From: an uncultured Actinomycetota bacterium
GTDB lineage: Bacteria; Actinomycetota; Actinomycetes; CAVWCF01
NCBI GenBank assembly: GCA_963753435.1
Contig: CAVWCF010000001.1
Location: forward strand, 32,001 to 96,000
Length of the DNA: 64,000 nt
Direction: 5' to 3'
The translations under genes were made by a program, and so were the position numbers. Below the pieces are notes generated by a model. It saw only the letters and a list, made by a program, of their open reading frames with translations, was not told where the DNA came from and did no database searches. This document shows positions 12,320 to 59,654 of this stretch, piece by piece (the first letter of the stretch is position 1; every line of letters starts with the position of its first letter).

Positions 12320-12481
12320 CCGAGCACTTTAGGGGAGACGTTGCGCGGCCGCTGAGTCACGCTCAGTAGCGACATCACCCGCTCGCTCAGGCAAGGCATG
12401 TGCGTGCTGTGGGCCATTCCGGTGAGTTTCGGGCCCAAGTGTTCACACAGCGTCCCGATGGCCTCAAGATCGGCACCGTAT

Positions 12482-12549
12482 GGGGAGGCGAAGACTTCCG
12501 GACGTACCTGGTCGCAGAGTCCGGAATGAGCCACAGCGAAACCGGCCCC
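12482..12549 (+). ncRNA. Cyclic di-GMP-II-like riboswitch aptamer
   Basis: GGGGAGGC-GAAGAC-TTCCGGAC-GTACCTGGTCGCAGA-GTCCGGAA-TGAGCC-ACAGCGAAACCGGCCCC. Stem 12496-12503/12519-12526, GA-rich kink-turn-like internal loop, pseudoknot TCGC(12512-15)/GCGA(12536-39) and a 3' AACC.GC end. Recognised by eye, not by a covariance model. Confidence 0.7.
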
Positions 12550-12579
12550 GCTCGAGCCAACGAGGGGGAAGGGTCAACC

Positions 12580-21213: not shown

Positions 21214-21416
21214 GCGGGGACGCTACCGGGGCCTGGCGTGGGGTCAGGCGATCGCAACGAGATGGCCAGAAAGCATCCGCGGCGGGTGCTCTTGCGCACA
21301 AATGTTGCGTTCGGCGCTCGAATGTTGCGCGAACGCGCTCGGATTTTGCGCAGATTCGCAAGGTCGGTGCGACACCTCTTGACGGGGAGGGGCTAGGGGC
21401 GCTTCACTACGGGTAT

Positions 21417-21432
21417 TCGAACAAGTGTTCGA
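21417..21432. promoter_or_regulatory. LexA (SOS) box, actinobacterial type
   Basis: TCGAAC-AAGT-GTTCGA, an exact match to TCGAAC-N4-GTTCGA; TTGACG -35 at 21379-21384; upstream of the dnaE/dinB cassette. Confidence 0.9.
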
Positions 21433-21437
21433 ACTCT

Positions 21438-21593
21438 CCCGCCCCGGGTCGTGGTCCTCGACCCCCACGACCCGGGCGGGATTGCCGCCGGATCCCGAGG
21501 CAGACGTGGGGAAGCGTCTCCTCGGGATCGGCGGCAGGCGAGTCGTCCCTTCCCCGGCGGCGGACCTCCCACGCTGCCGAGGAGGAGGACTCG
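21438..21593 (+). ncRNA. Putative structured leader or small RNA (three long hairpins) downstream of the SOS box
   Basis: HP1 21438-21480; HP2 21483-21536 with loop TGGGGAAG; HP3 21539-21593 pairs a CCCTTCCCC arm with the GGAGGAGG SD. Confidence 0.6.
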
Positions 21594-21919
21594 TGTCCCG
21601 TCGTTATGCCGAACCGATCGACGTCAAGCGGATCGACGTCAATGCCGCTGTTGACGTGGCCCCCACCTCCGCTGCCCCCGCCCCGGAGCAGTTCCTTTGG
21701 CGAGGTCGGCTGTATTCGGTACGCACCGTGCTGGCGCATTGGGTGGAGGGTCGGGCCTGGTGGCGGATGCGCGGCCCGGATGGACTGCCGGCCGTCGCCG
21801 AGGCGGCCGACCTGGAGGTCTGGCGGGTAGAAGCGCAAGCAGGCCGCAGCCGATCCAGCGGTGTCTACGACTTGGGCAATGACGGCGGCAGGTGGCGACT
21901 GCTGGGAATCCAGGACTGA
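21593..21919 (+). CDS. DUF6504-family protein
   Basis: SD GGAGGAGG; RRYAEPIDV, PEQFLWRGRLY.V..VLAHW....WW, EVWRVEA and GVYDL...W.L. Confidence 0.8.
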   Translation: MSRRYAEPIDVKRIDVNAAVDVAPTSAAPAPEQFLWRGRLYSVRTVLAHWVEGRAWWRMRGPDGLPAVAEAADLEVWRVEAQAGRSRSSGVYDLGNDGGRWRLLGIQD

Positions 21920-22326
21920 TGGGTGACCAAAGAACAGGTGCCCGGGCGGTGGGTGACCGAACAACGGATGACCGGGAGATTAGGGACCAGGCACGACACG
22001 ACTTGGCCCGGGCAGTCGCACTGGAGCCACAGGAGCGCTACCGGGTGGCGCTGTCGGTTGCGGTCCGTGCCGCTGCCTTGGTGCTGGCCGAACGCACCCA
22101 TCCATCCACCATCCGGCGTGGCCCAACCGGGATCTGGGTGCTGTTGGCCCGGCATGCTCCCGCGTTGCGGGAGTGGTCGGACTTCTTTGTGCTGGCAGCG
22201 ACCCGCACTTTCGGGCCGCGGCAGCCGCCGGTGAGCGAGCGTGAGGCCGACGACTTGTTGCGAGACGCCGGGCGTTTCCTTGACGTCGCCCGGAACCTGT
22301 CCAGCCCACACCGATCTGCGATCTGA
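21919..22326 (+). CDS. SAV_6107-like HEPN domain protein
   Basis: ERY..A...AVRAAALVLA, W.LLAR.AP.L.EWS.FF and VS.READDLLR; TGATG coupling to DUF6504. Confidence 0.78.
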   Translation: MGDQRTGARAVGDRTTDDREIRDQARHDLARAVALEPQERYRVALSVAVRAAALVLAERTHPSTIRRGPTGIWVLLARHAPALREWSDFFVLAATRTFGPRQPPVSEREADDLLRDAGRFLDVARNLSSPHRSAI

Positions 22327-22331
22327 ACACC

Positions 22332-25300
22332 ATGTCCGCGGACTTCACCCATCTACATGTCTGTAGTGGGTACTCGTTGCGCTACGGCGCTTCTTCGCCG
22401 ATGCAGTTGGTCGCCGCGGCGGTTGAGCACGGCATGGATGCGCTGGCCCTGACCGACCGGGATGGCGCCTACGGCGCGGTTAAGTTCGCCAAGGCCTGCC
22501 TGGGCGCGGGTATAGCGCCGATCCTGGGTGCCGACTTGGCTATCGGGGCTGCGCCGACCGATGGGACTGCGCGAGCCGACGGGACTGCGGCGTCGGGCGC
22601 TGACGCAATCGCCGCGACGCGGCGCACTCCGGCCCACGGTGGCGCCCGCGTGGACCCACGCCATCGCCGCATCACCGTGCTGGCGCGTGGCGCAGCCGGG
22701 TGGGCGGCGCTTTGTCGAGTCATCTCCGATGCGCACCTGCGCGGACAACGCGGAAAACCTGTCACCGATCCGGCGATGTTGGCCGATCGCGCGTCCGCTG
22801 GTCAGCTGACGGTGCTGCTGGGGCCGTCCTCCGATGTCGGGGTAGCACTGGCCCGACGTCGACCGGATCTGGCTCGAGCCGCGGTTCAGCGTTGGCGTGG
22901 GCTGCTTCCGGATGGACAGTTGCTGCTGGAGGTCGTCTGCCATTTCGGTTCGACCGACGCCACCGACCCGTTGGTCTGTTCACTGCCGCAGGCAGCCCGG
23001 ATGCTCGGTTTCGCCGGTTCGGTAGGTCTGCCGGCGGTTCTGACCAACGCTGTCCGTTACGCCCAGCCCGACGACGCGATCACCGTGGACGTGTTGGACG
23101 CAGTCCGGCGCCTAGTACCGATGGATGCTCGGCACCTGGACCGCCCCAACGCGCAGGGGTGGCTGAAACCTGCTGCTGCCATGCACCGAATTGCCGCCGA
23201 ACTTGCCGGCCAGGTCAGTGTCGCCGGCGATACCGACCGGCAGGTTGCCCACCGACTCCTCGCCACCACCGCCGAACTGGCCGGTTCCTGCCGTCTGGAC
23301 CCGGTCACCGATCTCGGCATCGGCGGTGTCGCACTGCCGGAGTTGGCATCCATCCCCAGCATCGCTGGGGACCCCCGGGTGCGCCGCGCTGCAACGGGAG
23401 CGGGCGCCGCGGCTTGGGGGAGCACTGACATAAGAGAAGAGGCCCGCATCGGCGACGCGATCCTGCGCGAACGCTGCTTGACCGGACTGAACTCTCGGCA
23501 CTCCAGCGGCACCGGCGACGAAGTGCGCAGACGGTTGGACGAAGAACTGACCACCATCGCCGAACTCGGCTACGCCACTTACTTCCTGACCGTTGCTGAT
23601 GTGGTCGACCTGATCCGGGGCCGTGGGGTGCGGGTCGCCGCCCGGGGCTCGGGGGCGGGCAGCCTGGTCAACTACGCCTTGGGGGTTTCCGGGGTGGATC
23701 CGCTGGCGCACGGGTTGCTGATGGAACGGTTCCTGTCCCCACTGCGCCAGGCATTGCCAGACATCGACGTTGATGTGGAATCCGCTCGGCGGGAGGAGAT
23801 CTACACCGCCATCCTCGACCGTTACGGCGGATCCCGGTGTGCGTGCGTATCGATGATGGACACCTATCGGGTGCGGCATGCGGTCCGTGACGTTGGCGCC
23901 GCCCTTGGGCTGCCGCCCGGGGAGATAGACACCATCGCCAAGGCATTCCCGCACATCCGGGCCCGCGACGCCCGGGCGGCGATGCAGGACCTACCGGAAC
24001 TGCGCGCCGGGCTGGGTCGAGACGGCGGCGCCGAACGACTGGAGTTGCTGTTGAGTCTGGTCGAGCGCCTCGACGGACTGCCCCGCCACGTCGCAGTGCA
24101 TCCGTGTGGGGTGCTGCTGAGCAACTCCCGACTGCTGGATCGCACCCCGATGGAAGCAAGTTGGACCGGCTTCCCCATGAGTCAGTTCGACAAGGACGAT
24201 GTCGAGGATCTCGGTCTGCTCAAGCTCGACGTGCTGGGCATCCGGATGCAGTCGGCCATGGCGCACGCGGTCACCGAGATCGCCCGCGTCGACGGCGATG
24301 ACGTCGACTTGGACGTGGTGCCTTTGGACGACCCGGACACGTTCGCGCTGATCCAGTCCACCCACACTCTGGGTTGTTTCCAGATCGAAAGCCCCGGTCA
24401 ACGCGAACTCATTGGCAAGTTCGCGCCGGAGACGTTCGGTGACCTGATCACCGACATCTCGTTGTTCCGGCCCGGCCCGGTCAAGTCGGACATGGTCACC
24501 CCGTTCCTCAAAGCCCGACAGGGCTGGGCGCAGCCGGAGTACCTGCACCCGGACCTGCGTCCGGCGCTGGCGGAGACCTGTGGGGTCGTGGTCTTCCACG
24601 AACAAGTGCTGCGGGTCATCGCAACGATGACCGGATGCTCGTTGGCTCAGGCCGACGAGGCGCGGCGACACCTGGGCTCACCGGACACCGCCCCGGCGGT
24701 GCGGGAGTGGTTTCATCCCACCGCCATCCGCCACGGCTACGACCTCCCCACCGTGGAGAAGGTGTGGCAGGTGCTTGCCGCGTTCGCCTCCTTCGGGTTC
24801 TGCAAGGCGCACGCGGCGGCATTCGCGTTGCCGACCTATCAGTCCGCCTGGCTGAAGGCGCATCACCCGGCGGCGTTCCTGGCCGGGGTGTTGACCCATG
24901 ACCCAGGCATGTACCCCAAGCGGCTGATCCTTGACGACGCTCGCCAGATGGGTATCGCGATCCTTGGCCTGGACGTGAACGAATCCGATGCCACCTACCG
25001 TGTCGAACGCCTCAACCCGACCGATGAGCCGCCGCCGGAGATCCTGGGCGCCCCACCCCGCCGGTTGGCCACGCCGGGGGTGCCGGATGGGCGTGCCTAC
25101 GGGATCCGGCTGGCATTGCCGGAGCTGAAGGGCATCAACGATGAAGAGGTGCAACGGATCTTGGCCAACCGGCCGTACGCCACGTTGACCGACTTCTTCC
25201 ACCGGGCCCGGGTCAGCAGGCCGGTGCTGGAACGCCTGGTGCTGGCCGGCGCCTTCGACTCCTTGTACGGGCTGAACTCGCCGGCGCCGGTGCGCCGCCG

Positions 25301-26273
25301 CGGCAAGGTGACGCGGCGGGATCTGTTGCTGGCCGCCGCCGATCTGGACCGATGGGCGCGGCCGGCGGCAGGAGCGCGGGCCCGCCGAAGCCGAGTACGC
25401 CGCATCGACTCCGCTGCGGCTGAAGCGGACCCGGCCGTGCTGGCCGCGGAGCAGACTCAGGCGCCGCCGCCGGCGCGGGTGCCCGACGTGCAGTTGGCGT
25501 TGGACATTGGACCTGCCGAACCCGAGCCGGGCAGCGGTCTGCCGGAGATGACTGCGGCCGAACGGGTCCGCGCCGAACTCGATGTGCTCGGTCTGGACGC
25601 CAGCGGGCACGTCGTCGACTTCTACGCGCCGGTGCTGAACGCCATCGGAGTCACTCGTTCAGCGGATCTGCTCGGTCAACGATCCCAGGCAGAACTGTGG
25701 GTGGCCGGAGTGAAGGTCGCCACCCAGACTCCGCCGATCCGATCCGGGCGCCGGGTGGTGTTCCTGACGTTGGACGACGGCACCGGGCCGGTGGACGCGA
25801 CCTTCTTCGAAGACGCACAGGGCCCGTATGCGGCGACCTTGTTCCACTCCTGGTTGCTGCTGGTGCGTGGGCAGCTTCGACGTACCGGGCCCCGTGGGGT
25901 CAGCCTGCGGGCCACCGGTTGCTGGGAGCTGACCAGCATTTCGGCGGCCTATCGGGATGGTGGGGTCGAGGCGGTGCACGACCTGCTGGTGCCACCACCG
26001 GGTTGGGACCAAGCCGACGAAGCAGCGGTGGCTGCCGCAGCGGCAAGCCGGTCCACCCGACCGGTGCTGGTCCGAACGCCGGACGGCGCGAGCTTCGACC
26101 CGGCCGCTGGGCCGGCTGGCACTCGGGCCGGAGGCATGGGTCCGCGCCGGGTGCTGGTACACGTATCCGGTTTCAAACAGTCCCCGTACGCCGACGTGCG
26201 CCCGCCGGGCGAGGAGGTCACCAAGCCGCCACGAAAACTGTGGCACTCAAGTCCTGGCTCCTCCGGCGGATAG
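22332..26273 (+). CDS. dnaE2: SOS-inducible DNA polymerase III alpha subunit (DnaE2-like)
   Basis: PHP domain HLHV.SGYS/LTDRDG; RGSGAGS, PDIDVD, KLDVLG, FQIESPGQ and FGFCKAHA; OB fold; tail KLWHSSPGSSGG. Confidence 0.9.
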   Translation: MSADFTHLHVCSGYSLRYGASSPMQLVAAAVEHGMDALALTDRDGAYGAVKFAKACLGAGIAPILGADLAIGAAPTDGTARADGTAASGADAIAATRRTPAHGGARVDPRHRRITVLARGAAGWAALCRVISDAHLRGQRGKPVTDPAMLADRASAGQLTVLLGPSSDVGVALARRRPDLARAAVQRWRGLLPDGQLLLEVVCHFGSTDATDPLVCSLPQAARMLGFAGSVGLPAVLTNAVRYAQPDDAITVDVLDAVRRLVPMDARHLDRPNAQGWLKPAAAMHRIAAELAGQVSVAGDTDRQVAHRLLATTAELAGSCRLDPVTDLGIGGVALPELASIPSIAGDPRVRRAATGAGAAAWGSTDIREEARIGDAILRERCLTGLNSRHSSGTGDEVRRRLDEELTTIAELGYATYFLTVADVVDLIRGRGVRVAARGSGAGSLVNYALGVSGVDPLAHGLLMERFLSPLRQALPDIDVDVESARREEIYTAILDRYGGSRCACVSMMDTYRVRHAVRDVGAALGLPPGEIDTIAKAFPHIRARDARAAMQDLPELRAGLGRDGGAERLELLLSLVERLDGLPRHVAVHPCGVLLSNSRLLDRTPMEASWTGFPMSQFDKDDVEDLGLLKLDVLGIRMQSAMAHAVTEIARVDGDDVDLDVVPLDDPDTFALIQSTHTLGCFQIESPGQRELIGKFAPETFGDLITDISLFRPGPVKSDMVTPFLKARQGWAQPEYLHPDLRPALAETCGVVVFHEQVLRVIATMTGCSLAQADEARRHLGSPDTAPAVREWFHPTAIRHGYDLPTVEKVWQVLAAFASFGFCKAHAAAFALPTYQSAWLKAHHPAAFLAGVLTHDPGMYPKRLILDDARQMGIAILGLDVNESDATYRVERLNPTDEPPPEILGAPPRRLATPGVPDGRAYGIRLALPELKGINDEEVQRILANRPYATLTDFFHRARVSRPVLERLVLAGAFDSLYGLNSPAPVRRRGKVTRRDLLLAAADLDRWARPAAGARARRSRVRRIDSAAAEADPAVLAAEQTQAPPPARVPDVQLALDIGPAEPEPGSGLPEMTAAERVRAELDVLGLDASGHVVDFYAPVLNAIGVTRSADLLGQRSQAELWVAGVKVATQTPPIRSGRRVVFLTLDDGTGPVDATFFEDAQGPYAATLFHSWLLLVRGQLRRTGPRGVSLRATGCWELTSISAAYRDGGVEAVHDLLVPPPGWDQADEAAVAAAAASRSTRPVLVRTPDGASFDPAAGPAGTRAGGMGPRRVLVHVSGFKQSPYADVRPPGEEVTKPPRKLWHSSPGSSGG

Positions 26274-26292
26274 CGCCGAAGATGGCAACAAG

Positions 26293-27534
26293 ATGAGCCG
26301 CAAGCAGTTGCGCCGCAATGATTCAGTTGAACCTGCGCCCACGACAGTCGATGACACCGGGTGCACCGTTCTGCACGTGGATATGGACGCCTTCTACGCG
26401 TCGGTGTCCCTGCTGGAGCACCCTGAACTCATCGGCCAACCAGTCATCGTCGGCGGTGGCGGCACCCGCGGCGTGGTGCTGAGCGCCACCTACGAAGCCC
26501 GCAGATTCGGAGTGCACTCGGCAATGCCGATGACCCGGGCGCGACGCGTCTGCCCGACGGCGGTGATCCTGGAGCCGGACCATTCCCGCTATGCCGCGGT
26601 CAGCGACTCGGTCATGCAGATATTTGCGTCCATCACGCCGCGCTACGAACCGCTCAGCCTGGATGAAGCGTTCCTCGACGTTGCCGGTGCCCGACGCCGT
26701 GTCGGTCCGCCCAGGCACATCGCCGAGCTGATCCGGGCCCGCGTGGCCGACGAGCAGGGCATCACCTGCTCCGTCGGTGTGGCGTCGACGAAGTTCGTCG
26801 CCAAACTGGCGTCCACCCGGGCCAAGCCTGATGGCCTCATCGTCGTGCCGGCCGACAGCGTCGTGCAGTTCCTGCACCCGTTGCCGGTCGCCGCGCTTTG
26901 GGGGGTGGGGGAGAAGACCGAGGAAGTGCTGACCCGGCTGGGGCTACGAACCGTCGGCGACCTCGCGCGCACACCCGTGGCCACGCTGCAGCGGGCGCTC
27001 GGCCCCGCGGCCGGCAGCCACCTGTCCGACCTGGCCTGGGGGCGTGATCCCAGGTCGGTTACGCCGAACGAGCCGGACAAAAGCATCGGCGCTGAGGAGA
27101 CGTTCAGCCGGGACACCGACGACCCTGAGGTCCTGCGCCGGGAGTTCCTGCGCCTGACCGAACGTGTCGCGGCCCGGCTACGTGCGGGCGGCTGGGTCGG
27201 TAGAACGGTCAGCATCAAGGTGCGGTTCGCTGACTTCTCCACGATCACTCGGGCCAAGACGCTGCGCGAGCCGACGGACGTGGCCCAACTGATCTACCCC
27301 GTGGTCCGGGCCTTGTATGACGGTCTGGGTCTGCAGCGGGCCCGGGTGCGCCTGGTTGGGGTTCGCATGGAGGGGCTCCTGCCGGTGGATTCCCACGCCG
27401 AGCAGATGATCTTGGACGCCCCGGACTCGGGATGGCGGGAAGCCGAGCAGGCCGCTGACCGGGCGGCGGCGCGGTTCGGGTCGGGCGCGGTGCGACCGGC
27501 TCGGCTGATCGATCCGCGCCAGGATCAGGCCTGA
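26293..27534 (+). CDS. dinB: DNA polymerase IV (Y family)
   Basis: HVDMDAFYAS, YEAR.FGV.SAM, SLDEAFLD and KSIGAEETF; clamp-like QMILD. Confidence 0.95.
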   Translation: MSRKQLRRNDSVEPAPTTVDDTGCTVLHVDMDAFYASVSLLEHPELIGQPVIVGGGGTRGVVLSATYEARRFGVHSAMPMTRARRVCPTAVILEPDHSRYAAVSDSVMQIFASITPRYEPLSLDEAFLDVAGARRRVGPPRHIAELIRARVADEQGITCSVGVASTKFVAKLASTRAKPDGLIVVPADSVVQFLHPLPVAALWGVGEKTEEVLTRLGLRTVGDLARTPVATLQRALGPAAGSHLSDLAWGRDPRSVTPNEPDKSIGAEETFSRDTDDPEVLRREFLRLTERVAARLRAGGWVGRTVSIKVRFADFSTITRAKTLREPTDVAQLIYPVVRALYDGLGLQRARVRLVGVRMEGLLPVDSHAEQMILDAPDSGWREAEQAADRAAARFGSGAVRPARLIDPRQDQA

Positions 27535-55720: not shown

Positions 55721-55769
55721 TTGACGGTGGGGGAGAGTGGAGTACGGTGGCGCCACTTGGAGGGAGTGG
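55721..55769 (+). promoter_or_regulatory. dcw promoter with MraZ-binding direct repeats
   Basis: TTGACG -35 at 55721 and TACGGT -10 at 55743; GTGG at 55727, 55737 and 55747 (10-bp period), TTGG at 55757 and GTGG at 55766. Confidence 0.72.
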
Positions 55770-55809
55770 CCGGGTAGACCGGTCATGTGGGGCGAAGGGG
55801 AGGTGGCCG

Positions 55810-56241
55810 GTGTTCCTGGGTACCCACCACCCACGTCTGGACGACAAGGGCCGGCTCTTCCTTCCCGCAAGGTTCCGCGAGCAGTTGACCGATGGCGTGG
55901 TCCTGACTCGCGGCCAGGAACGGTGCCTCTTCGCCTACTCCGTGTCCCAGTTCGATGCGGTCACCGCGCAGATGGCCTCGGCCAGTACTGCCTCACGTGA
56001 GGCCCGTGGCTACCAGCGCATGTTCTTCGCCTCGGCGACGTTGGAGACACCGGACAAGCAGGGCCGGGTCACGATCCCCGCCGATCTGCGCAACTACGCC
56101 GGGCTGGAGCGCGACTGTGCGGTCGTCGGCGTCAACACCCGGATGGAGATCTGGGCTGCATCCGCCTGGGAGAGCTACCAGGCCACCCACGAGGACTCCT
56201 TCGCACAACTGAGCGAGGAGGTGTTGCCCGGCCTCCTTTAG
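55810..56241 (+). CDS. mraZ: Division/cell wall cluster regulator MraZ
   Basis: FLGTH..RLDDKGRL.LP, DKQGRV.IP and EIW. Confidence 0.96.
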   Translation: MFLGTHHPRLDDKGRLFLPARFREQLTDGVVLTRGQERCLFAYSVSQFDAVTAQMASASTASREARGYQRMFFASATLETPDKQGRVTIPADLRNYAGLERDCAVVGVNTRMEIWAASAWESYQATHEDSFAQLSEEVLPGLL

Positions 56242-56257
56242 GGCTTCGTCGCGCGAG

Positions 56258-56330
56258 GCCTCCCCCCGCTCCGCACCTGAGACACCTTCCCCGGTCTCAG
56301 GCGGATGCCAACAGCGAGCGGGTGGGGACC
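56258..56330 (+). ncRNA. mraW RNA motif
   Basis: Hairpin CCTGAGAC-ACCTTCCCCG-GTCTCAGG (56276-56301) with outer pairing 56258-71/56316-30; located between mraZ and rsmH, as expected for this actinobacterial motif. Confidence 0.8.
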
Positions 56331-56557
56331 TGGAGCGACGGACCGGACCAGAAACGCAGCAATAAGCACAAGCGGATCAGCAAGGTGCATGCAGGACCGC
56401 ACAACAGAAGGGCAAGGGTCGAGGTGAGCGGGCAACCGATTCCAGGGCCCGGCGTACGCGCCGGATCCGGGCTTCTTGCGCCGCTGCTGCTGGCCGTCGT
56501 CGCTACCAGTTGCTGCGTGCTGATTGCCGTTGCTTGTGTTGGGTTGGTAGGCGCCGC

Positions 56558-57511
56558 ATGACCGCCGCACATGTGCCGGTGATGACCGAGCGTGTGTTGG
56601 CGCTGCTCGGCCCGGCCTTGATGGGAGACGCTCCAGTCCTCGTTGATGCGACCGTGGGGCTCGGCGGTCACACCGAGGCGTTTCTCAACAAGCATCCGAC
56701 GGTGCGCGTGGTCGGCATGGACCGCGACCAGGATGCGCTGGCCGCATCTGCGGCGCGGCTGTCCGGCTACGCGGATCGGGTCACGTTGGTGCATGCCGTC
56801 TACAACGAACTGCCGGCCGTCCTGCGGCGGCTGGGCCTTGAGTCGATCCAGGCGGTGCTCTTCGACCTGGGCGTTTCCTCCATGCAGCTGGACGCAGCCG
56901 AGCGCGGCTTCGCCTACTCCCAGGACGCGCCGCTGGACATGCGCATGGACGCCACGGCCCAGACGCCGACGGCCGCCGAGGTGGTCAATACCTACTCCGC
57001 CGCTCAGTTGGCTGCGGTGCTGAGGCACTACGGCGAGGAACGCTTCGCGCGTCGGATCGCCGACGCCATCGTGGCTGCGCGGAGCAAGAGCCCCATCTCC
57101 GGAAGTGCCGAACTTGCCGAACTCGTGCGCAACGCCATCCCCGCGGCGGCGCGACGGACTGGTGGGCATCCGGCCAAGCGAACGTTCCAGGCGCTTCGGA
57201 TCGAGGTCAACGCCGAATTGTCCGTCCTCACCGAGGCACTGCCGGCGGCATTGGACGAGCTCGTGGTCGGGGGGCGCATCGCCGTGTTGTCCTACCAATC
57301 GCTGGAGGACCGCATCGTCAAGCAGGCGCTTGCGGCCGTTTCGCGCTCAACCGCGCCCGTCGGCCTCCCCGTCGTTCCGGCCGACGCCGAACCGCGCTTT
57401 GAGTTGCTGACTCGTGGTGCGGAGAAACCGGACGCCGCCGAGGTCGCTGAAAACCCGCGGGCGGCATCGGCCCGGTTGCGCGCGGCCGTGCGATTGCGGG
57501 AGGCGGCGTGA
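56558..57511 (+). CDS. rsmH: 16S rRNA m4C1402 methyltransferase
   Basis: [28 protein letters not shown] and [10 protein letters not shown]. Confidence 0.96.
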
Positions 57512-57888
57512 GCGCGGCCCGGCCCCTTCCTCGGGACCACTTCGTCCCGGCGGCACCGACTCCCCGTCCGCGGCTGCGGGTCATTCGCTCCGTACCGCGC
57601 CCACCGTTGCCGCCGTTCATTGCGGTGGTGGCGGGACTCCTCCTCATTGGCCTGGTTGGGCTGCTCGGTCTCAACACCGTGCTGGCCCGGTCCTCGTTCA
57701 CCGTCGCGGAACTGGCAACGGACGTTGCCAGCCTGGAGGAGCAGCAGGCGGCGCTGGCGGAGGAGGTCGCTGTACTGGAATCGCCGACGGAGTTGGCCCG
57801 GCGCGCAGCTCGTCTCGGCATGGTTGCCGGCGGTCCGCCGGTCTTCATCGACCCGGCCACGCCGGGAGCGCAGGCGCCCAAGCAATGA
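57508..57888 (+). CDS. ftsL: Cell division protein FtsL
   Basis: Single TM helix, coiled coil and A..LGM; lies between rsmH and ftsI. Confidence 0.8.
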
Positions 57889-59654
57889 CCACGACGACGC
57901 CGGTACGGCCGCCGACCCGGCCATCGAACCGGCCATCGACCTTGGCTTCGGACCGGCGCCGGATCCGGCAGTTGTCAGCCCTCGTGATCGTCATGGGGCT
58001 GTTGTTCACCGGGCGGCTGGTGCACGTCCAGGCCGCGCAGGCGCAGTTGTACGCAGATCGAGCCGACGCCGAGCGGACAACCACGGAAACGGTTCCGGCC
58101 CCGCGCGGATCCATCACCGACCGCAACGGCGTGGCCTTGGCAGCCAGCATCCCGGCGTACGACATTTCCGCGGACCCGACGCTCATCACCGATCCGGCAG
58201 CGACGGCCCGGACGCTGGCGCCGCTGCTGGATCTGGACGTGGCCTGGCTGCGAGACCGGCTGGACGGGGATCGTCGTTATGTGGCGCTGGCGCAGCGAGT
58301 GCCACCGGACGTCTGGTCGCGGATCCGCGGGGCGGACCAGCCGGGCATATTCGGCGACCCAACGCGAGACCGGCACTACCCCGCAGGTGCCGTCGGCGCG
58401 AACGTCGTTGGGTTCGTGGGCAGCGACGGGCACGGCTTGGCCGGTGTGGAGTTGGCCTACGACCAGAACTTGTCGGGCGTCGACGGGACGCTGACCTATG
58501 AGCGCGGCGCCGATGGGCGGCGCATCCCGACCGCGGAGGCCACAGAGGTGGCCGTGGAGCCGGGCGCTTCGGTCCGGTTGACGCTGGACCGGGACCTGCA
58601 GTGGATGGCGCAAGAGGCGATCGCCAAGCAGGTTCAGGCAACCGGTGCAGCAAGCGGCACGGTCGTAGCGATGGATCCGCGTACCGGCGAAATCCTGGCG
58701 TTGGCGACCGCGCCGACGGTGGATCCGGGGGATCCAAGCGCTGCTGCTGCAGACGATCGCGGGAACCGGGCCGTCAGCGAGGTCTACGAGCCCGGGTCGA
58801 CCAGCAAGGTGATGACGATGGCGGCGGTCATCGAGGAAGGTGCGCTGACACCGGATTCGGTGCTCACCGTGAAGGACTCATTGCGTCGCGGCGGCAAGAC
58901 GTTCAACGATCACACACCGCACCCAACACAGCGTCTGACGCTGACCGGCGTCCTGGCCAAGTCGAGCAACGTCGGGACGATCCTGGCAGCGGAGAGCATC
59001 GGCGGACCCAAGCTCTATGACTACATGCAGCGGTTCGGCATCGGCCGACCCACCGGCATGGTGTTCCCCGGCGAGAGTGCGGGCCAGATACCGCAACCGT
59101 CGTCTTGGTCGGCAACGACGTTCCCAACATTGGCATTCGGGCAGGGCTTCAACCTCAACTCGGTCCAATTGGCCAGCGTGTTCGCGACCCTGGCCAACGA
59201 CGGCGTCCGAATCCAGCCGTCCCTCGTGTCCGGCACCATGGACCTGTCCGGGGAATTCACAGCGGCTGCCCCGGCCATCAGCGAGCAGGTTGTCAGCGAG
59301 CAGACCGCCGACACCGTGCTGGCGATGATGGAGGCAGTTGTCGGTGAGGGTGGGACAGCGCCCAACGCGGCCATCGACGGGTACCGGGTGGCCGGCAAGA
59401 CGGGTACGGCCCAACGCGTTGACCCGGCCTGTGGCTGCTATCGCGGCTATACCGCATCCTTCGTCGGCGTCGCCCCTGCCGATGATCCGCGCCTCGTCGT
59501 GTCCGTCGTACTGCAGGACCCCAAGCGGGGCCGATACGGCGGCCAGTTGGCCGGACCAGTGTTCACCGAGGTCATGTCGTTCGGGCTCAAGTCGCAACAG
59601 GTGCCGCCAAGCGGTTCCGTGCTGCCGAAGCCGCGGCTTTTCGAAGGTGACTAG
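57885..59654 (+). CDS. ftsI: Penicillin-binding protein FtsI (class B)
   Basis: RG.I.DRNG, EPGSTSK (SxxK), SSN and KTG. Confidence 0.95.
   Translation: MTTTTPVRPPTRPSNRPSTLASDRRRIRQLSALVIVMGLLFTGRLVHVQAAQAQLYADRADAERTTTETVPAPRGSITDRNGVALAASIPAYDISADPTLITDPAATARTLAPLLDLDVAWLRDRLDGDRRYVALAQRVPPDVWSRIRGADQPGIFGDPTRDRHYPAGAVGANVVGFVGSDGHGLAGVELAYDQNLSGVDGTLTYERGADGRRIPTAEATEVAVEPGASVRLTLDRDLQWMAQEAIAKQVQATGAASGTVVAMDPRTGEILALATAPTVDPGDPSAAAADDRGNRAVSEVYEPGSTSKVMTMAAVIEEGALTPDSVLTVKDSLRRGGKTFNDHTPHPTQRLTLTGVLAKSSNVGTILAAESIGGPKLYDYMQRFGIGRPTGMVFPGESAGQIPQPSSWSATTFPTLAFGQGFNLNSVQLASVFATLANDGVRIQPSLVSGTMDLSGEFTAAAPAISEQVVSEQTADTVLAMMEAVVGEGGTAPNAAIDGYRVAGKTGTAQRVDPACGCYRGYTASFVGVAPADDPRLVVSVVLQDPKRGRYGGQLAGPVFTEVMSFGLKSQQVPPSGSVLPKPRLFEGD

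Follow-up and report, generated by a model that had tools for sequence, protein, structure and literature searches.

A three-hairpin leader RNA behind a LexA box in Actinomycetota, predicted to pair with ribosome-binding sites of division genes

RESULTS

The SOS leader and its three hairpins

The window analyzed here, a stretch of 64,000 nucleotides from an uncultured Actinomycetota bacterium (assembly GCA_963753435.1, contig CAVWCF010000001.1, positions 32,001 to 96,000 of the forward strand), carries an SOS operon with a leader of three hairpins (HP1, HP2, and HP3) and, 35 kb away, a division operon with the mraW RNA motif in its leader. The loop of HP1 is complementary to the nearest ribosome-binding site downstream of the mraW motif, and we lean toward the view that the SOS leader acts there in trans. 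An earlier note on this DNA had instead connected the HP2 loop with the loop of the mraW motif. The features of the SOS leader locus are listed by window coordinates, strand, and description.

21379..21408, + strand, putative promoter region, with TTGACG at 21379-84 and, at 21403-08, a -10-like hexamer of non-canonical sequence
21417..21432, strand not assigned, LexA (SOS) box, a perfect palindrome ahead of HP1, HP2, and HP3
21437..21481, + strand, HP1, a 17-bp hairpin with loop at 21455-64 carrying the predicted trans-acting seed CUCGACCC; fold z score, -5.95
21483..21536, + strand, HP2, a 23-bp hairpin with loop UGGGGAAG at 21507-14; fold z score, -6.9
21542..21561, + strand, HP3, a short hairpin with loop CCUUCCCC at 21548-55
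21593..21919, + strand, DUF6504 gene, first of the SOS operon (PF20114, E = 8e-19)
21980..22326 (start approximate), + strand, SAV_6107-like HEPN gene (PF18726, E = 6e-18)
22332..26273, + strand, DNA polymerase III alpha homologue; the best model is the error-prone DnaE2 subfamily, with a score below its cut-off
25957..27534 (true start further in), + strand, DinB/Y-family polymerase open reading frame (ORF) (PF00817, PF11799)

The LexA box agrees with the consensus tCGAAC-N4-GNNCGa given in a section of PMC9380542. Perfect palindromes of the LexA type occur twice in the whole genome, the one at 21417-32 included. Homologous leaders, 212 in all, were collected from loci with a DUF6504 match (100 of the 150 matches listed, long contigs being preferred), from metagenome loci, and from genomes that have lost DUF6504; several of the counts include the unpublished genomes G008, G015, G024, G030, G032, G036, and G043, no claim depends solely on these, and the variants named below come from other genomes. 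A LexA box with at most one mismatch was present in 205 of the 212 leaders, and TTGAC and TANNNT-type hexamers were equally placed 5' of the box in homologous loci. The SOS box overlaps the promoter or start, as in members of the LexA regulon, to which the leader locus is predicted from this box to belong. What we take to be a PafBC-type promoter element was found in 36 of 99 leaders. A strict scan for sigma-70 promoters returned zero sites at the SOS leader and mraW loci, and a terminator scan returned none at either.

The exact HP1 octamer lies inside a predicted hairpin loop in 133 of the 212 leaders, the exact HP2 heptamer in 67, and the exact HP3 word in 58. In the HP1 stem, 4 to 6 pair types were seen at each of 12 positions across 43 genera (median z score, -4.3), by structure-anchored counts that are biased toward the fold on which they were built; RNAalifold gave no consensus structure on a MAFFT alignment of 32 HP1 hairpins, because loops of unequal length misalign the stems. 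The HP1 loop is predicted to be open, with an unpaired probability of 0.73 to 1.0. HP2 showed compensatory changes at 11 of 12 consensus pairs in 31 sequences, and G-U pairs were tolerated at many positions of the leader stems. The modules have been gained and lost independently of one another; leaders of family f39 (L018, L101, L117) often have two copies of HP1. At the Rfam 15 gathering score the leader matched no family, in the window or in 20 homologous loci. The leader hence presents a conserved single-stranded seed on a structured scaffold, as expected of a trans-acting small RNA (sRNA).

The mraW leader and the division operon

The second locus comprises the following features.

55807..56241, + strand, mraZ (PF02381)
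56240..56351, + strand, mraW RNA motif (RF01746, whole model, 47.7 bits, E = 4e-9), with loop CUUCCCC at 56286-92
56416..56424, + strand, predicted HP1 target site GGGUCGAG(G), between Shine-Dalgarno-like purines and the first base of a GTG start
56424..56561, + strand, unannotated 45-amino-acid ORF that has a hydrophobic helix at its C terminus and a stop overlapping the rsmH start (ATGA)
56558..57511, + strand, rsmH (mraW) (PF01795); its stop overlaps the ftsL start
57508..57888, + strand, ftsL (NF053549); its stop overlaps the ftsI start
57885..59654, + strand, ftsI, class B penicillin-binding protein

The score of 47.7 bits is slightly below the Rfam gathering score of 50. Just 8 of 35 genomes with an RF01746 match pass this cut-off, and the threshold therefore misses most of these lineages. 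The hairpin at 56240-351 has the CUUCCCC terminal loop and stands upstream of rsmH with the 45-amino-acid ORF between them; it is a member of the mraW motif in all but score. The motif was present in 35 of 41 genomes and in Corynebacterium glutamicum; in one genome (G019; L061) its loop hairpin is duplicated. The 45-amino-acid ORF, rsmH, ftsL, and ftsI are joined by successive stop-to-start overlaps. A search of the small ORF against Pfam and NCBIfam gave zero matches. In 51 genomes a small membrane ORF of 43 to 84 amino acids occupies this position ahead of rsmH; its sequence is little conserved, but the C-terminal hydrophobic helix is constant. Upstream of mraZ, at 55725-55752 (+), GTGG repeats with a spacing of about 10 nt are presumably MraZ boxes; the tip of HP2, GTGGGGAAG, resembles these repeats. 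In 69 loci holding both the SOS leader and the mraW leader the two are 6 to 19 kb apart; the distance of 35 kb here reflects a gene insertion of about 22 kb between moxR and mraZ (window about 32900-55600).

HP1 is complementary to start sites of division genes

The 9-nt complement of the HP1 loop (21456-64), GGGTCGAGG at 56416-24, was overlooked in the earlier note. This target word, GGGUCGAGG, lies at the ribosome-binding site that comes first downstream of the mraW motif; the HP1-site duplex has a predicted energy of -19.5 kcal/mol. HP1 loop and site were called independently, by fixed rules, in 135 genomes with both loci. The site in the mraW leader was conserved in 68 of these, where it precedes a hydrophobic small ORF (51 genomes), another short ORF (4), or rsmH itself (13). 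Loop and site were both present in 61 genomes, the loop only in 27, the site only in 7, and neither in 40; the same four classes numbered 40, 18, 2, and 28 by genus and 19, 10, 2, and 17 by family (P = 2.5e-4). Kin are not independent in such counts. A Pagel-type test on a tree of MraZ and RsmH, run with our own script, gave a likelihood ratio (LR) of 22.6 (df = 4, P = 1.5e-4), compared with a highest value of 9.6 in 49 null simulations, and the fitted rate of site loss was about 20-fold higher without HP1.

A second target, whiB, was found later. Its identity is given by PF02467 and by the closest solved chain, WhiB (8DY9), and it was located in 29 of 30 genomes searched. The site stood at the whiB start in 14 of 22 HP1 genomes versus 1 of 7 without HP1 (P = 0.035); in G083 it is at a secondary start. 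The lone genome without HP1 that has the whiB site carries a degenerate HP1, and several others without HP1 have only partial matches at the whiB position. Among 50 HP1 genomes, the site was at the first start after the mraW motif in 39, compared with 2 of 275 cases for seven neighboring control genes (DUF3040, 0 of 47; ftsL, 1 of 31; ftsI, 0 of 32; dnaE, 1 of 47; dinB, 0 of 50; moxR, 0 of 48; ybaK, 0 of 20), and at the further controls the counts were 1 of 29 for ftsZ and 1 of 20 for smc. The same loose rule placed it at mraZ in 16 of 50 and at DUF6504 in 6 of 50. A stricter rule gave 10 of 88 versus 1 of 44 for mraZ (P = 0.099), and this gene is not established as a third target; in four genomes of one genus the site is at mraZ in place of the small ORF. 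In one genus (L090, L097, L107, L115, L125, L155) the target word also stands before DUF6504, as a possible feedback site. By a crude gene call in the window's own genome, the site core precedes 14 of 2,120 genes, whiB among them.

Five genomes with the site lack DUF6504 and have kept the leader, now before the HEPN gene, with an exact loop core in four and a degenerate one in the fifth. At the outer pair of the seed there are compensatory swaps in G099 (C-G to G-C, within a 10-bp duplex that reaches into the AUG) and in G010 (to U-A), and G052 has a G-U wobble within the seed. The sites are on the sense strand, within 22 to 30 nt before start codons. Conserved complementary sites at the ribosome-binding sites of targets, a further feature of trans-acting sRNAs, are thus present.

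The HP2 loop and the mraW loop

The earlier note had proposed that the SOS-induced RNA is the trans-acting partner of the mraW motif through a loop-to-loop contact. The parts of this contact were confirmed: CTTCCCC (56286-92) lies in a 10-nt terminal loop, by the fold and by the RF01746 match, so that the mraW hairpin exposes CUUCCCC; TGGGGAAG at 21507-14 forms the tip of the 23-bp HP2, downstream of the perfect LexA palindrome; and the two loops, both predicted to be open, can form 7 Watson-Crick pairs plus a U-G pair. The caution that a 7-mer match may arise by chance was also well placed, as the heptamer occurs 8 times in the window versus 9.7 expected, and a 7-nt complement was found in 12 of 3,570 pairs among the loops of 85 strong window hairpins (both strands were folded, and some pairs are one hairpin counted twice).

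Several results speak against this contact. The mraW loop was CUUCCCC in 82 of 83 genomes without HP2 and in 50 of 52 with it. In G099 the HP2 loop has changed to GAGGAAG and the HP3 loop to CUUCCUC, while the mraW loop is unaltered. HP3 in fact carries a second copy of CTTCCCC (21549-55), 35 nt downstream of the HP2 loop, that the earlier note had missed. HP2 and HP3 were both present in 41 of the 135 genomes, HP2 only in 11, HP3 only in 6, and neither in 77, and in a tree-aware test the presence of HP2 followed HP3 (LR = 41.8) and not the mraW-leader site (LR = 4.1, not significant). In four loci (G285, G315, L337, L397) HP2 has lost one G and HP3 one C; these do not discriminate, because 6 pairs with the mraW loop also remain. 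Duplex energy does not separate the two partners either, being -13.6 kcal/mol for HP2 with HP3 and equally -13.6 kcal/mol with the mraW loop. Among Streptomycetaceae, 20 of 63 loci have the mraW motif, although the leader was absent from all 72 loci examined up to 10 kb from the DUF3040 gene, and C. glutamicum, where a search for DUF6504 gave no match, retains the mraW loop. That a nearby GGGGAAG might be the partner of this loop was considered and rejected, as none is conserved in 35 mraW loci. We conclude that the pairing of GGGGAAG with the mraW loop as first proposed is probably wrong and that, judged by covariation, the partner of HP2 is probably HP3. The broader claim, that the SOS RNA acts in trans on the rsmH-ftsL-ftsI leader, gained support by way of HP1 and the ribosome-binding site, and not by way of HP2 and the mraW loop.

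Since the mraW loop has the same sequence as the HP3 loop, it may nonetheless serve as a second contact for HP2. In 42 leaders the median HP2 stem was 24.5 bp and the median linker 9 nt; so short a linker beside so long a stem would make an intramolecular HP2-HP3 contact hard, and contacts between copies or with the mraW loop possible. In 50 of 73 leader folds the pyrimidine tract of HP3 pairs with the Shine-Dalgarno region of DUF6504.

CUUCCCC and GGGGAAG elsewhere

CUUCCCC is the fourth most enriched heptamer in upstream regions of the window's own genome (19 versus 6.6 expected). As members of an HP2 regulon, ftsZ and smc were considered and rejected: CUUCCCC was present at ftsZ in 6 of 29 genomes (2 of 14 with HP2, 4 of 15 without) and at smc in 9 of 20 (5 of 12 with HP2, 4 of 8 without). 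Enriched upstream and recurrent at smc regardless of HP2, the word therefore looks like a general leader element. Of the smc leaders (L488-L507), 9 have the word, and in 8 of these it stands about 8 to 13 nt downstream of a TAGNNT resembling a -10 box, near the presumed 5' end of the transcript. Upstream of ftsZ (L458-L486) a stretch of about 40 nt that may be a promoter or a known motif is strongly conserved in nearly all 29 loci, and in G187, G022, and G020 an mraW-like hairpin whose loop is CUUCCCC lies downstream of it. In the own genome (G000), CUUCCCC lies upstream of genes at C1:101473(+), 113163(+), 645527(-), and 569005(-) and at C5:170063(+) and 46457(+); from their N termini we take these genes to be ftsZ, dnaE1, smc, ftsK, a parA-like gene, and glmU. 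The same genome has strong non-coding hairpins with GGGGAAG loops upstream of small genes at C1:1629693 (+) and C5:198878 (-). Apart from the loci treated here, the window holds a c-di-GMP-II-GAG riboswitch aptamer at 12475-12556 (+) (RF03169, 44.9 bits) that overlaps a DUF11-domain ORF.

Observations that weigh against pairing by HP1

Several results speak against the proposed pairing of HP1 with its sites. The automatic HP1 calls contained about 4 false positives and 2 misses, and correcting these 6 by eye lowered the LR to 22.0. Base-level covariation is thin because the seed is nearly invariant, and the conservation of the seed core is partly by construction. The outer pair in the 68 loop-site pairs was C-G in 57, G-C in 1, U-A in 1, U-G in 2, and a mismatch in 7, with one pair mis-anchored. 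In a permutation test, cognate loop-site pairs did not outperform shuffled pairs (P = 0.27 for run length and P = 0.053 for flanks), and an independent-pairs test with 4 to 9 pairs on supported branches, which lacked power, was not significant. By a prediction fixed beforehand, nine genomes were to have HP1; of seven testable ones four did, and the three failures belong to one genus that has the site without HP1. Among 16 testable predicted negatives, 11 were without HP1 and 5 had it, 3 of the latter with a 7-nt version of the mraW-leader site and 2 with the whiB site. G049 and G075 are without HP1 yet have the 7-nt version at the rsmH start. In 5 of 22 HP1 genomes the strict site was absent at whiB, mraZ, and the mraW leader, and one fold, covering 231 nt of the mraW leader in the window, has most of the site in base pairs.

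RNA contigs were of the same kind: those covering the leader display no discrete RNA, strand, or induction. Of the RNA runs listed, 11 of 12 are metatranscriptomes, and the contigs carry no strand, ends, or level. Contigs of the first four runs all cover the leader, three of them stopping at 21584-21605, and in 2 of 8 runs contigs bridge the leader and DUF6504. The small-share runs X5 to X8 gave scattered cover over 12 kb, much of it from other organisms, and are therefore uninformative on the level of expression.

DISCUSSION

A putative route from DNA damage to division genes

The LexA box, the hairpins, the complementarity with its conservation and co-occurrence, and the position of the sites at start codons suggest, with somewhat better than even probability in our estimate, that the leader is a conserved three-hairpin RNA whose HP1 base-pairs after DNA damage at the ribosome-binding sites of the mraW leader and of whiB, blocks translation, and delays division. 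DNA damage would lift LexA repression and the leader would accumulate, whether still joined to the DUF6504-HEPN-dnaE-dinB message or as a stable 5' fragment. The 8-bp HP1 duplex would cover the 30S footprint. Since the small ORF, rsmH, ftsL, and ftsI overlap stop to start, a block at the first start would lower FtsL and FtsI, and a block at whiB would lower a septation regulator. HP2-HP3 pairing may control translation of the SOS operon itself, because HP3 can otherwise cover the DUF6504 Shine-Dalgarno sequence; with a stem of about 24 bp and a linker of about 9 nt, this contact probably needs a second copy of the RNA or partial unfolding.

A wider version, in which the leader would be a checkpoint RNA with two seeds, is one that we hold to be doubtful. 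HP1 would shut the ribosome-binding sites of rsmH-ftsL-ftsI and whiB, and HP2 would mask CUUCCCC loops in trans, on HP3 of other copies, on the mraW motif, and on leader elements of smc and ftsZ. If this were true, a single SOS transcript would turn translesion synthesis on and division off, as a protein-free counterpart of SulA, and CUUCCCC would be a general actinobacterial leader element.

Other explanations

The strongest rival, also rather unlikely in our view, takes GGGUCGAG to be a cis element whose reader is a protein, a different RNA, or the ribosome; HP1 would be complementary to it for another reason, and the co-occurrence would reflect shared lineage history. The site persists in 7 of 47 genomes without HP1 (5 of one genus), base-level covariation is not significant, folding places 30 of the 737 own-genome copies of the 7-nt core in a terminal loop, and 16S rRNA contains the same CUCGACCCC. 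That 16S stretch is folded into a stem, however, and the site is rare before starts genome-wide. The tree-aware test favors dependence of site and loop, two unlinked division genes carry the site, and several genomes without HP1 have only partial matches at whiB. rRNA as the partner itself (GGGGAAG twice in 23S, the HP1 word once in the 16S stem) found no support.

The loop-to-loop model of the earlier note, with HP2 as the trans-acting partner of the mraW motif, we regard as improbable. It draws some appeal from the order of the seeds, which runs antiparallel to that of the two elements in the mraW leader and would let both contacts form together, and from the apparent steric strain of HP2-HP3 pairing within one molecule, which would free HP2 for partners in trans. 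Against this stand the retention of the mraW loop without HP2, in C. glutamicum, and in Streptomycetaceae, and the behavior of HP2, which follows HP3 in presence and in sequence (G099) and does not track the HP1 site.

Slightly less probable still is a real pairing of reversed direction, in which the mRNAs of division genes bind HP1 and tune or titrate the message for the mutagenic polymerases. Complementarity has no direction, HP1 is part of an mRNA, as the bridging contigs indicate, and the site also precedes DUF6504 in 6 of 50 genomes; the sites, however, coincide with ribosome-binding sites of division genes, and HP1 is self-contained and lies upstream of its own Shine-Dalgarno sequence. 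It is very improbable that the hairpins act as DNA, as cruciform or single-stranded signals with motifs that proteins recognize on either strand. Loop and partner do share one double-stranded word in opposite orientations, and the region is tied to DNA damage, but the stems tolerate G-U pairs and the sites are on the sense strand shortly before start codons.

Relation to known systems

SulA, YneA, and ChiZ are SOS inhibitors of division, and SosA and a checkpoint protein of Caulobacter are reportedly so as well, going by paper titles. The leader resembles them in its LexA-type control and in the predicted delay of septation after DNA damage; unlike these proteins, which act on the divisome, it is an RNA proposed to act on translation of ftsL-ftsI and whiB, and it sits on a mutagenic-polymerase message. 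The trans-acting 5' leaders SreA and SreB of Listeria and the division-blocking sRNAs DicF and OxyS of Escherichia coli pair near start codons, and some of them slow division; they differ from the leader in phylum, signal, and targets. DivS is a further SOS division inhibitor, as mentioned in a section of PMC5014011.

Two actinobacterial RNAs are closer. F6 of mycobacteria (RF01791) represses rpfE2 via its 5' untranslated region (UTR) through an 8-nt loop seed, in a phylum without Hfq, according to part of PMC8583896, and the predicted pairing of HP1 with its sites may by analogy work like this seed. Both have a single long hairpin with a C-rich loop, sharing CGACCC in the model alignment; HP1, however, scores 17.8 bits (E = 0.19) versus a gathering score of 46. 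F6 is also, in the same part of that source, a free-standing gene with rpfE2 as target, whereas HP1 lies in a LexA-controlled operon leader with more hairpins and has predicted division-gene targets. The 6C RNA (RF01066) is raised about 2-fold by mitomycin C and nearly threefold without LexA, and its overexpression elongates C. glutamicum cells; the sections of PMC5014011 that give these results name no division target. The leader shares C-rich hairpin loops with 6C, but its locus has no match to the 6C model of two C6-loop hairpins, and the loops differ. The own genome (G000) has two sub-threshold 6C matches, at C1:1500874-1500947 (+) and 1282898-1282973 (-).

For the mraW motif (RF01746), whose loop HP3 also carries, the portions of PMC2864571 and PMC4607514 covered describe the hairpin with its CUUCCCC loop and give no ligand, downstream GGGUCGAG site, or small ORF; the motif appears as a 5' UTR in C. 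glutamicum in part of PMC3890552. The scr2101 RNA of Streptomyces coelicolor appears unrelated, as it lies on the opposite strand and between other genes in the relevant part of PMC2602773. Solo ImuB-C operons, in which a small beta-type accessory gene stands with DnaE2 or DinB under LexA, share LexA control, DnaE2, and DinB with the operon described here, and a leader RNA is not mentioned in the sections of PMC3765255 covered; DUF6504 may be ImuB-C. DUF6504 was detected in 27 of 41 relatives and in 199 of 401 genomes of the class, the family also gives matches in Caulobacter, and a sequence search for a solved structure of it found none. SAV_6107 is entered merely as an actinobacterial family in the part of the HEPN survey (PMC3710099) that lists it. 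A phage origin was considered and rejected, as a single viral contig has a relative of DUF6504 and that contig is without a LexA box. A full-text literature search, outside of which most subscription papers lie, returned nothing on the leader, on DUF6504, on bacterial occurrences of the seed words, or on any partner for the mraW motif, and motif surveys elsewhere may list the leader. It is apparently an undescribed RNA family, of a known general kind and in an unusual placement.

Significance

How Actinobacteria halt division in response to DNA damage is understood only in part. Streptomyces is without clear homologues of known division inhibitors, as stated in a section of PMC9380542; since the Streptomyces loci examined lack the leader, the leader does not solve that case. 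Further outcomes of this work are a hitherto unlisted RNA family, an unannotated small membrane ORF heading the division operon, and a lead on the surroundings of the long-orphan mraW motif. The exact bases of seed and target are named, so a few point mutations suffice as a test. If the proposed reading is true, an RNA checkpoint carried on the polymerase message would represent a new coupling of mutagenic repair to division arrest in many families of the class.
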